A stretch of DNA of 64,000 bases from Candidatus Latescibacterota bacterium (lineage in GTDB: Bacteria > Latescibacterota > UBA2968), in contig OZ244960.1 of the NCBI GenBank assembly GCA_965222605.1, positions 3,328,001 through 3,392,000 on the forward strand. Direction: 5' to 3'. A program made the translations under genes and the position numbers. The notes below the pieces were generated by a model, which saw only the letters and a program-made list of their open reading frames with translations, was not told the DNA's origin and did not search any database. Positions 12,865 through 14,851 of the stretch are shown piece after piece. Positions within the stretch are counted from its first letter, which is position 1. Every line of letters begins with the position of its first letter.

Positions 12865-13199
12865 ATGAATATCTGATGTTACGCAGTGCGCCAATGCAGG
12901 GTCACGGGCGAAAAAGATGATCGAAAAAGAGCTTGACCTGGCAGAAATTGCCATATATCTTGTTGCAAAGGACAAACGATTGCTATAATATCAAAAAATA
13001 ATTGCTTTATGGTGTTTATTGACTAACTGATGTTACGCATGTCTCGGATGTTTGTCATGCTGAGGCGGGCGCAATGAATCTCCTGCGCCCAACACCCGTC
13101 AGGCTGACGAAGCATCTTTTACTTCTGAAGGTAATTAGGTTATAGTAGATGAACTGCTATCGCAGTTGTACAGGTATAAGAAAGTCAAGTAGAAAAAGT

Positions 13200-13388
13200 G
13201 CCAAATTCGCGAGCGAGCAGGTATTCCTGCCAGATATGTCTCAGGGCTTTACACAGGTATGTCATTCAGGGTCAGTGCCCTTAAATTGCTTCATTCAAGC
13301 TCCTGAGAAGGCAGACGAACAGGTCACCGCTTCAGGGTCAAAGCCCGTATGTACAACTTCGTTCTATCCTGCTCATCCCAGGAGCTTA
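13200..13388 (-). ncRNA. bridge/seek RNA of the IS110-family element
   Basis: Non-coding region 3' of the recombinase with two repeated GGGC..TGACCCTGAA hairpins flanked by segments matching target and donor halves; 5' and 3' ends approximate. Confidence 0.75.
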
Positions 13389-14654
13389 AGCTGCTTTTTT
13401 TACTTGAGATACCGTTTTTTCCTTTTTGGTGTTGCCATTTATGTTGAAAGTTTCTTGTTTATTGACCAGCGCGAAGAGGATGCGTAAGAGTTTAGAGCAA
13501 AGGGCAATAATGGCTTTTTGTGTGGGTTTTCCTGCCCCTTTAAATCGGTGATAGGCCTCCTTGAAGATGGGATTATGGAAGATGAGGGGAAAGACCGCTG
13601 TATAGAGGATGCGTCTAAGTCTTGCGCGTCCCCTTTTGGCGATTCTTCGTGTGCCCTTTTTATATCCTGAAGAGATTTCAAAGAGGTTTAAGCCAGCCAG
13701 TTTGATGAGTTGTTCAGGTGCTTGATAAGCCTCAAAGGGGCCTGTTTCGCCGAGTATAGATGCCACACTGATTGGTCCCAGTCCAGGGATTGAGCACATA
13801 TATCCTGCTTGGGGTATATGTTGTAGGTGTTCGTTCATTTGGGTTTCGATTTCTTGCAGTTGGGTTTTAAGCAGATCCATTAAGCAGAGGGTTTGCATCA
13901 GTTCGAGGCAGATACTGTCTATGGCTTGGTTCACGCCAATGGAGGTGGAAGCCGCTTCAAGGACGGCCTGTGCTTTGGCTTTGGAGAGGCGACGATTTGA
14001 TGCCTTTTGGATCAGGAGAGTAAGTTCATCAATGCCAAGGGCTTGTATCTGCAAAGGCGTAGGTGCTACGTTGAGGATCTGTTGTGCGGTTTTGCCTGTT
14101 ATATCGCTGAAGAGGGACACAAACTCAGGAAAGAGGACATCCAGGATACGATGAAGCACGTTTTTAGCCGCTGTGATTTGATCTTTCTTTTCATAGCGCA
14201 TCGCTGTCAAGGCACGCAAATCGGCATAGACCCCTTCAGGCAGATAGGCCCTGTGAGACTTGCCTTGGCGTACCATATCAGCGATGACACCAGCATCCTT
14301 GTCGTCTGTTTTTAAGGGACTGTTGTCCCCCATCTCTTTCGACCAGCGCACATGGGAAGGCTGAATCAGGACGAAGGGCTGTTTATGAGCCCGCAGAAAG
14401 TAGGCCAACGGCAACCAATAATGTCCAGTAGGTTCCATACCAATCAGGGTTGCCGCACACTGATGGTGCTTTTCAACCTGTCGGATTTTGTCGAGCAATG
14501 ACATAAAGGACATACCTTCATTGTAGAGTTTGAATGCCGCGATCTGCCTGCCTTCTAACATCATCTTGACGAAGTGAACCGATTTACCGATATCAATGCC
14601 AACGATCAAGGTGTTGGGTTCTACATACTCGATTTGCTTGTGATGCTTGGCCAT
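13386..14654 (-). CDS. IS110-family DEDD transposase/recombinase
   Basis: GIDIGK, GMEPTG, KTDDKDA (DEDD); SIPGLG and EISSG in the Tnp domain. Confidence 0.95.
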   Translation of the reverse strand: MAKHHKQIEYVEPNTLIVGIDIGKSVHFVKMMLEGRQIAAFKLYNEGMSFMSLLDKIRQVEKHHQCAATLIGMEPTGHYWLPLAYFLRAHKQPFVLIQPSHVRWSKEMGDNSPLKTDDKDAGVIADMVRQGKSHRAYLPEGVYADLRALTAMRYEKKDQITAAKNVLHRILDVLFPEFVSLFSDITGKTAQQILNVAPTPLQIQALGIDELTLLIQKASNRRLSKAKAQAVLEAASTSIGVNQAIDSICLELMQTLCLMDLLKTQLQEIETQMNEHLQHIPQAGYMCSIPGLGPISVASILGETGPFEAYQAPEQLIKLAGLNLFEISSGYKKGTRRIAKRGRARLRRILYTAVFPLIFHNPIFKEAYHRFKGAGKPTQKAIIALCSKLLRILFALVNKQETFNINGNTKKEKTVSQVKKAA

Positions 14655-14851
14655 GGTTGCCTCCTCGAAGAAGATAATTAAATGGTTTTTTTGCAATCTT
14701 CGAATTTGGCAACTATGGCCTGTTTACTCAACTTTTTTCTTTACCCTTTATTATAGCAATCACCGCTCCTTCGACTCCGCTGCGCTCAGAATGACAGGCG
14801 CAGGATATTGTGCCTCTGCGTAACGTCAGTGAATATGCAAAAGAGGTTGTG

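Follow-up and report, generated by a model that had tools for sequence, protein, structure and literature searches.

The locus analysed here raises the question of whether a recombinase from an uncultured bacterial phylum is directed by an RNA encoded in its own insertion sequence, and whether the sites that it joins can be read from that RNA. The locus lies at positions 13173 to 14760 of a 64,000-nucleotide stretch of DNA from a Candidatus Latescibacterota bacterium (assembly GCA_965222605.1, contig OZ244960.1, positions 3,328,001 to 3,392,000), which is referred to as the window and numbered from its first letter; the window sits in a single 6.34-Mb contig. A preliminary description, made from the sequence of the window, had proposed an IS110/IS1111 element with a CA core, a "fully decodable" bridge RNA 3' of the recombinase gene, a promoter formed at the joined ends, and a target inside a host repeat. 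The results presented below make it very probable that 13173-14760 is an intact IS110-family insertion sequence whose recombinase is guided by its own downstream RNA, through the mechanism proposed further on.

The genome contains four copies of the element, 99-100% identical over exactly 1588 bp, as well as one 92-nt fragment, and these four copies are its only IS110-family genes. On the plus strand, the element opens with GGTAT at 13173 and closes with TAGCAAT at 14760, and one copy of the core CA (TG on the element strand) flanks it on each side, at 13171-13172 and 14761-14762. The non-coding DNA is unequally distributed, with 106 nt upstream of the gene (14655-14760) versus 213 nt downstream (13173-13385). 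A contig from DNA sequencing run X7 covers 13069-13170 with one difference and resumes at 14761, thereby skipping 1590 bp as expected of an empty site; it has two ambiguous letters at the skip and agrees with the element boundaries, and contigs from run X1 span the left junction. Since the four copies share exactly 1588 bp and the X7 contig skips the element, the boundaries are independently fixed, and they are those of the preliminary description. The insertion is site-specific, terminal inverted repeats are absent, and the core alone is repeated at both junctions, all of which are features of the IS110 family. An 11-bp perfect subterminal inverted repeat is present 26 and 49 nt inside the ends; it is retained at 9 of 11 positions in relatives of 77-85% identity, and the subterminal inverted repeats that characterise IS1111 measure 7-17 bp. 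Comparing the flanks of further copies had been put forward as a check: all four copies share the ends and the target of loop 1, the context being AGTTGTACA-element-CACCGCT in three and ATTTGTACA-element-CACCGCT, with one mismatch, in the remaining one.

Downstream of the stop codon, the minus strand carries, in this order, a 5' target guide, a cap, a 3' target guide, a 5' donor guide, a second cap, and a 3' donor guide (Table 1). The two GGGC..TGACCC caps, the loop 1 guides with every identity and complementarity to flanks and core, and the loop 2 motifs AGCAAT and ATACCTG with their matches to the element ends were all found as they had been described. Read in the orientation of the element, the 5' guide AGUUGUACA is the complement of the top strand TGTACAACT, and the 3' guide AGCGGUG has the sequence of the top strand. 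Anchored at the junctions, the guide matches amount to 7+9+7+6 = 29 nt, compared with a mean of 15.0 (standard deviation 1.7, maximum 24) in 5000 dinucleotide-preserving shuffles of the 213-nt non-coding region, of which 0/5000 reached 29; likewise, 0/5000 random genomic pseudo-junctions reached 29 nt against the real non-coding region. The RNA can be called decodable, but not fully so: AGCAAU is followed by UU where the core has CA, so that the 5' donor guide leaves the core unpaired and three of the four guides cover it. The 5' donor guide stops before the core in Bacillota relatives as well.

The cap motif reappears 3' of recombinase genes, mostly from Bacillota, whose products have an identity of only 34-41%. 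A covariance model (R1) was built from eight Bacillota sequences only, within this range of protein identity and with a hand-written structure. In the window, R1 matched the minus strand at 13211-13376 over the full model length (65.2 bits, E 1.3e-13), which places the RNA 3' of the gene, past the stop codon, in agreement with the preliminary description. A search of 100 sources yielded 74 matches at E <= 0.01; in the resulting alignment, 94.4% of 2161 cells are standard pairs versus 68.7% in shuffled alignments and 28-46% when the partners are displaced by 1-3 columns, 31/32 pairs change on both sides, and 0/500 shuffles reach the observed values. In an alignment of eight distinct non-coding regions from close relatives, most of the variation falls within guide segments and hairpin loops, and RNAalifold recovers the closing stem, a short stem below the target loop, the stem 13310-13315/13226-13231, and a long stem below the donor loop, with three compensatory pairs. 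Closing-stem pair 19:171 is A-U in four of these sequences and G-C in the other four, and the donor-arm base stem has two compensatory pairs in the G019 copy. The single window sequence also admits an alternative fold, with the strands on either side of the target arm paired to each other and a local hairpin made by the two strands farther downstream. This fold was ruled out: its six pairs are formed in 46-54 of 63-69 cases on the clade alignment, A.C mismatches fall at the very positions at which the preferred fold covaries, and it is also broken in the G019 copy of the close set. The idea of an RNA switch was dropped because of this rejection.

Table 1. Positions in the window of the element, its gene, the predicted RNA and its guides, the predicted junction promoter, and the surrounding host repeats.
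Feature	Position	Strand	Remarks
Whole insertion sequence	13173..14760	-	1588 bp; four copies align over exactly 1-1588 and diverge outside
Recombinase gene, 422 aa	13386..14654	-	ATG at 14654, GGAGG before ATG; stop codon 13386-13388
Predicted bridge (seek) RNA, 166 nt: closing stem, target-binding arm, donor-binding arm	13211..13376	-	Full-length match of model R1
Closing stem, 5' strand UGAGCAG	13369..13375	-	Pairs with 13214-13220; RNAalifold, 8 close sequences; helices 1-2
Closing stem, 3' strand CUGCUCG	13214..13220	-	RNAalifold and clade alignment
Target loop, 5' guide AGUUGUACA (DNA AGTTGTACA)	13350..13358	-	Identical to plus-strand left flank plus core 13164-13172
Target-loop cap hairpin GGGCUUUGACCC (DNA GGGCTTTGACCC)	13335..13346	-	Helix 4 of clade alignment: 100% of cells paired
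Target loop, 3' guide AGCGGUG	13325..13331	-	Reverse complement of plus-strand CACCGCT 14761-14767
Donor-arm base stem, 5' strand	13310..13315	-	Pairs with 13226-13231 (GGCAGG); helix 5: 5/5 pairs covary
Donor-arm stem, 5' strand UCUCAGGAGCUU	13297..13308	-	Pairs with 13239-13249; helices 6-7: all 9 pairs covary
Donor loop, 5' guide AGCAAU	13285..13290	-	Pairs with first 6 nt of recombinase-proximal end (14755-14760)
Donor-loop cap hairpin GGGCACUGACCC (DNA GGGCACTGACCC)	13269..13280	-	Helix 8: 99% of cells paired
Donor loop, 3' guide AUACCUG	13254..13260	-	Equals last 5 nt of distal end plus core; reverse complement of CAGGTAT 13171-13177
Left target half and core, AGTTGTA-CA	13164..13172	+	Read from sequence and copy flanks
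Core and right target half, CA-CCGCT	14761..14767	+	Read from sequence and copy flanks
Predicted junction promoter, -35 half TTGACT	13183..13188	-	Kept in 8/8 close non-coding regions
Predicted junction promoter, -10 half TATAAT	14750..14755	-	17-nt spacer across joined ends
Subterminal inverted repeat arm TGCCAAATTCG	13199..13209		Repeat search: 11 nt, 100% complementary to 14701-14711
Subterminal inverted repeat arm CGAATTTGGCA	14701..14711		Partner of 13199-13209
REP-like hairpin AACTGC-TATC-GCAGTT	13152..13167	+	3' arm overlaps target
MITE-like host repeat split by element	13026..14830		Terminal inverted repeats 13026-13039 and 14817-14830; 14 nt, 93% complementary

Target specificity can be followed among the close relatives of the element, which are found in Candidatus Latescibacterota genomes. 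Any match is present in 6/41 genomes of the same order (this genome, G000, included), with 0 to 7 matches per genome: one congener has seven copies at 95%, other genomes have copies at 93%, 78%, 77%, and 76%, and a metagenome contig has one at 85%. The element ends are identical in 16 close loci, and in each of these the loop 1 strand pair fits the flanks of its own locus. The 9-nt 5' target guide has no mismatch in 11 loci, one in four, and two in one, and the 7-nt 3' target guide has none in 14 and one in two, so that the target AGTTGTA-CA-CCGCT given in the preliminary description, found at all four genomic copies (one with one mismatch), is matched likewise in 16/16 close loci with 0-2 mismatches over 16 guide positions. 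Three guide variants occur naturally: AGUUGUACA with AGCGGUG (AACGGUG in one copy), inserted as AGCGGTG-IS-TGTACAACT, where IS denotes the insertion sequence; GAUGAACA with AUCUGUG in L039 and L044 (77-78% protein identity), inserted as ATCTGTG-IS-TGTTCATC or ATCTGTG-IS-TGTTTATC; and AGAUAAACA with AUCUGUG in L132 (85% protein identity), inserted as ATCTGTG-IS-TGTCTATCT. The guide positions that vary among the variants are the positions that vary among the targets. Judged by sequence, three natural guide variants in three matching targets are the comparative equivalent of the reprogramming of loop 1 that had been suggested as a test. The second target belongs to a decamer repeat, TTCATCTGYG, with 111 sites in G020 and 59 in this genome at <=1 mismatch versus 0-1 for the control. 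As a separate observation, this decamer is a tandem repeat dispersed in all five congeneric genomes searched (G000, G004, G013, G019, and G020), with 30-111 sites in each.

The correspondence between guides and DNA holds across the wider clade, where the guide segments of each locus were read via the columns of the R1 model and compared with guides permuted among loci in 2000 rounds. Between the 3' target guide and the left flank, identity averages 6.10/7 positions versus 3.72 +/- 0.17 for permuted guides (n=49, 0/2000), 25/49 distinct loci being perfect; between the 5' target guide and the right flank, 5.96/9 positions agree on average versus 4.08 +/- 0.16 (n=50, 0/2000). For the donor, the reverse complement of the 5' guide 6-mer is found within the expected interval ahead of the gene in 47/51 cognate versus 16/255 non-cognate combinations, and the last five bases of the 3' guide within the expected interval downstream in 53/54 versus 47/270. 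A strict 7-mer donor-guide test failed because the seventh position lies outside the pairing, and was replaced by these 6-mer and 5-mer tests. Loop 2 and element ends change together as AGCAAT with ATTGCT, AGGAAT with ATTCCT, AGGAAG with CTTCCT, and AGTATT with AATACT, and this clade-wide co-variation supports the donor reading TAGCAAT-CA-GGTAT of the preliminary description.

The recombinase is encoded in the one long minus-strand frame at 13386-14696, and its start is placed at ATG 14654 because homologues are 422 aa long and GGAGG lies six bases upstream. PF01548 (DEDD_Tnp_IS110) matches residues 18-176 (6.9e-30), PF02371 (Transposase_20) matches residues 286-369 (7.2e-20), and the NCBIfam equivalog NF033542, "IS110 family RNA-guided transposase", scores 225 bits against a cut-off of 140. 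D21, E74, D117, D120, and S329-G330, which, following published work, we take to be the catalytic residues, are invariant across 19 aligned homologues down to 36% identity. The same residues align with matching ones in ISCro4 chain 9t56_A, and the nearest solved structures by sequence are those of ISCro4 (9t56, E 3.7e-10) and IS621 (8wt6, E 9.4e-7). An AlphaFold2 model computed from the 19-homologue alignment has a mean pLDDT (predicted local distance difference test) of 85.9 and a predicted template modelling (TM) score of 0.77. With this model, Foldseek ranks 1-10 in the PDB are occupied by chains of the ISCro4 and IS621 synaptic complexes (9t56, 8wt9, 8wt6; E 8e-15 to 2e-13), with TM scores of 0.64-0.69 by target length and 18-20% identity, and Nop5-type proteins rank next. 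By sequence and predicted structure, the protein is thus an IS110-family DEDD RNA-guided transposase with the fold of the solved bridge recombinases. In a plasmid collection, no named close relative was found; the best match, 38% identical and from a Bacillus plasmid, is annotated only as "IS110 family transposase".

In the proposed mechanism, a DEDD/Ser recombinase would be guided by an RNA of about 166 nt encoded just past the stop codon of its gene. This RNA would consist of a closing stem and two arms, each arm with an internal loop capped by a GGGC..GACCC hairpin; the first loop is predicted to pair with both strands of the chromosomal target AGTTGTA-CA-CCGCT and the second with the joined element ends TAGCAAT-CA-GGTAT. 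By analogy with the systems described in PMC11208160 and PMC11187229, the recombinase would bind the RNA, with one loop holding the target and the other the joined ends of the circle. The junction of the circular form would read ...CTTATACC-TG-ATTGCTATAAT..., and recombination at the 2-nt CA core would insert the circular form without duplication. When the ends are joined through one CA, the motifs TTGACT-N17-TATAAT announced in the preliminary description are indeed brought together facing the recombinase ATG at 14654, and this near-consensus promoter, predicted from sequence, would give expression of the recombinase and, through read-through transcription, of the RNA. A sigma-70-like site was not found on the minus strand of the integrated element. 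As the promoter exists only in the circle, the gene and the downstream RNA may be switched on after excision, which is what PMC11208160 and PMC11187229 propose for the IS110 family. Recent preprints are divided between a cut-out and a copy-out mode of transposition.

At the level of the genome, the uninterrupted 14-mer target AGTTGTACACCGCT occurs as 18 exact and 38 one-mismatch empty sites in 6.34 Mb, with about 0.05 exact sites expected by chance, and sites with <=2 mismatches number 114 versus 49 for a reversed control pattern. Most sites are preceded by a hairpin resembling repetitive extragenic palindromic (REP) sequences, e.g., GAACTGC-N4-GCAGTTG or GAACTGGTC...GACCAGTTG, and 35/56 have the upstream arm by a strict criterion. 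The compensatory difference between these arms (GAACTGC/GCAGTTG versus GAACTGGTC/GACCAGTTG) suggests, from the sequences compared, that the hairpin is under selection. A family of such hairpins ending in AGTTGTACACCGCT is found genome-wide, e.g., at positions 75984, 1381234, and 4034018 of the contig (G000:C1). In the window, the hairpin and target are carried by a repeat of about 215 bp (13026-13172 and 14761-14830) that resembles a miniature inverted-repeat transposable element (MITE) and has 14-bp terminal inverted repeats ACTGATGTTACGCA / TGCGTAACGTCAGT. A second MITE-like copy lies at about 18552-18723, and BLAST with one empty copy returned 26 pieces across the genome. As for the placement of the target inside a MITE/palindromic repeat, the target lies on or beside a REP-like hairpin, and the MITE-like repeat hosts 2/4 element copies and the 92-nt fragment.

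This fragment (L005, G000:C1:6101681-6101773) is 89% identical to the distal end of the element (the equivalent of 13173-13264) and lies at the same target in another MITE-like copy. It runs from a normal junction to an internal TG-A in the donor-loop coding region, where it is fused to the other target half, CACCGTT; an internal deletion at 3-nt microhomology seems a likelier origin for it than a guided event. Outside the element by 180 bp, the 13-mer GATTGCTATAATA at 12978-12990 is the exact reverse complement of the element end at 14749-14761; it is found at three genomic places outside the four copies, this one included, with no similarity beyond the 13-mer, and a paralogous copy of the surrounding segment lacks it. 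The 13-mer may be a chance occurrence or a -10 box. Regarding the neighbourhood, five of six orthologous congener loci lack the whole block 12873-14830, between a permease gene and a large downstream gene, and the two genes abut; the sixth (L217) gave a left match only. The element is consequently nested in a lineage-specific insertion, and as the whole block is missing, the congeners offer no empty target at this locus. The downstream gene (14810-18115) encodes a 1101-aa protein with C-terminal repeated DxDGDG/NG..GF.DF segments, which we take to have a dockerin or calcium-binding look. Sequence of the stretch is present in runs of eight studies, and RNA runs X17 and X18, which hold part of it, are labelled "sponge metagenome", a hint at the habitat of the host.

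Several observations weigh against the reading of an intact, RNA-guided element. Contigs from RNA runs (X15, X17) fall on parts of the gene and none on 13151-13351, and such contigs can show neither transcription nor its absence. The X7 contig of the empty site has just 27 letters on its shorter side. No Rfam family matched either strand of 12500-15500 at E <= 1, and a G-to-A change in 3/4 copies of this genome turns one target-arm pair into C.A. The R1 alignment was fitted to the structure of the model, so that its pairing figures lean towards that structure, the margin being large nonetheless, and the loci compared are relatives and not independent samples. The match of the 5' donor guide is limited to 6 nt and leaves out the core. 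Among close relatives (eight close sequences), neither donor ends nor donor guides vary, which is why the donor co-variation rests on distant relatives, and these represent few independent lineages, with four main 5'-guide and six 3'-guide classes. Lastly, 18 perfect targets are still empty, from which it follows that activity may be low, and insertion L042 is common to genome G004 (L046) and hence old.

Some of these points agree with other explanations of the locus. It is improbable that the RNA guides the target only, as a seekRNA in the narrow sense, with the protein recognising the ends, perhaps via the subterminal inverted repeats, and with functionless loop 2 matches. The shortness of the 5' match in loop 2, the constancy of ends and loop 2 in the close sequences with no co-variation at close range, the 11-bp inverted repeat itself, and the short target-matching RNAs that PMC11187229 describes for IS1111-type elements would fit such a division of labour; the loop 2 strands nonetheless change with the ends across the clade (47/51 vs 16/255; 53/54 vs 47/270), and the two arms have an identical cap and register. 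That the protein alone picks the target, the similarity between non-coding region and flanks being coincidence or a target fossil, is hardly credible, as nothing beyond the absence of direct RNA data speaks for it, while no shuffled sequence in 5000 reaches the observed matches and guides and targets co-change in the three close variants and across 49-50 distinct loci.

A further explanation retains all features of the element as real and takes it for a relic, recently silenced or tolerated by the host and no longer mobile. It draws on the unoccupied exact targets, the insertion common to another species-level genome, the stem mismatch in three copies, and the lack of a promoter-like site on the element strand in the integrated state. 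A promoter confined to the circle is, however, the normal state for the family according to PMC11208160 and PMC11187229, and the relic explanation is further countered by four copies of 99-100% identity with open 422-aa frames and intact catalytic residues, by a copy number varying among congeners from 0 to 7 matches per genome, and by the X7 contig, which shows the site without the element; it is quite unlikely. An intact element with a guided recombinase, which is presumably still active, accounts best for these observations.

Among known systems, the element can be compared with IS1111-type elements, with IS621 and ISCro4, with ISPpu9 and ISPpu10, and with an unnamed clade of 3'-RNA elements. 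As in IS1111-type elements with a downstream seekRNA (ISEc11, ISPa11, and ISKpn4; PMC11187229), the longer non-coding region is downstream of the recombinase gene, and of the two guide segments, the one that complements the top strand comes first (5'), ahead of the one that complements the bottom strand. A circle-junction promoter (predicted here), site-specific insertion without duplication, and natural reprogramming between relatives are likewise shared with the IS1111-type elements of that report. Subterminal inverted repeats are present as well, but in an odd position 26 and 49 nt inside the ends, and the protein of 422 aa is set apart by length from the IS1111 transposases of 330-350 aa given in PMC11187229; 422 aa is also the length reported there for the long IS110 subgroup. 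Of the double label IS110/IS1111, the family assignment thus stands (PF01548, PF02371, NF033542), with each of the IS110 hallmarks that were examined present, and for IS1111 the position of the RNA and the order of the guides speak in favour and the protein length against.

With the bridge recombinases IS621 and ISCro4 (PMC11208160; PDB 8wt6, 8wt9, 9t56), the element shares the predicted protein fold, the catalytic residues, an RNA with two internal loops, of which one pairs with both target strands and the other with both donor strands, a 2-nt core, and a target in repetitive palindromic host sequence. It differs from them in its low sequence identity (18-20%), in an RNA located 3' instead of 5' of the gene, in a CA core in place of CT, and in the closing stem that encloses both arms. 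In the IS621 type, the core takes part in all four pairings (PMC11208160), whereas here the 5' donor guide stops before it; neither this feature nor the upstream left-end RNA, which together mark the narrow, IS621-like IS110 subgroup, is found in the element. Targeting of palindromic host repeats has long been known for the IS110 family (reference 11 of PMC11208160; PMC12288879), and ISPpu9 and ISPpu10 of Pseudomonas putida are, like the present element, IS110-family members inserted at one position of REP sequences (PMC12288879), from which it differs in host phylum and RNA position. For ISPpu10, a target-DNA hairpin is reported to be required in addition to RNA complementarity (bioRxiv 10.64898/2026.03.19.712850); by comparison, the target here overlaps the 3' arm of a hairpin with compensatory arms, and only 35/56 target-like sites have the arm.

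RNA scaffold and guide registers are shared with the unnamed clade of long IS110 transposases with a 3' RNA, mostly from Bacillota (L054-L131 and others), at 34-41% full-length protein identity; homologues in the clade are 405-447 aa long compared with 422 aa here. The Bacillota members mostly have an AG core, ends CATTCCT.../...GGGAG, and targets resembling ribosome-binding sites, in contrast to the TG core (element strand), ends ATTGCT.../...ATACC, and REP-like target of the window lineage. In the Bacillota relatives (L060-L131, e.g., L082, L085, and L114), the left target half is typically AAGGAG-like, the distal end is ...GGGAG, and a start codon follows a few bases later in several loci. 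To judge from these sequences, the elements seem to use ribosome-binding sites as insertion targets and to bring a substitute site with them.

It is conceivable, though doubtful at present, that the 3' RNA is an uncatalogued structural class of bridge RNA, common to IS110 recombinases of about 405-447 aa in Bacillota, Latescibacterota, and other bacteria, and marked by a closing stem around two arms, GGGC..GACCC caps, fixed guide registers, an NG core, and a 5' donor guide that ends before reaching the core. The 3'-RNA clade may already be covered by the bridge-RNA models of Durrant et al. (PMC11208160) and by the phylogeny of Siddiquee et al. (PMC11187229). If the class is real, the window lineage would exemplify the natural retargeting of a single scaffold between two different host repeat families. 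The kind of system has been known since 2024, and the known working of the family is unchanged by this new example. What it adds is a cleanly decoded and apparently intact RNA-guided recombinase from an uncultured phylum, with a CA core, a 3' RNA, and one scaffold in three natural guide-target pairs. Moreover, model R1 finds the RNA beside some 70 related recombinase genes, which gives triplets of guide, target, and donor for comparing or engineering bridge recombinases.

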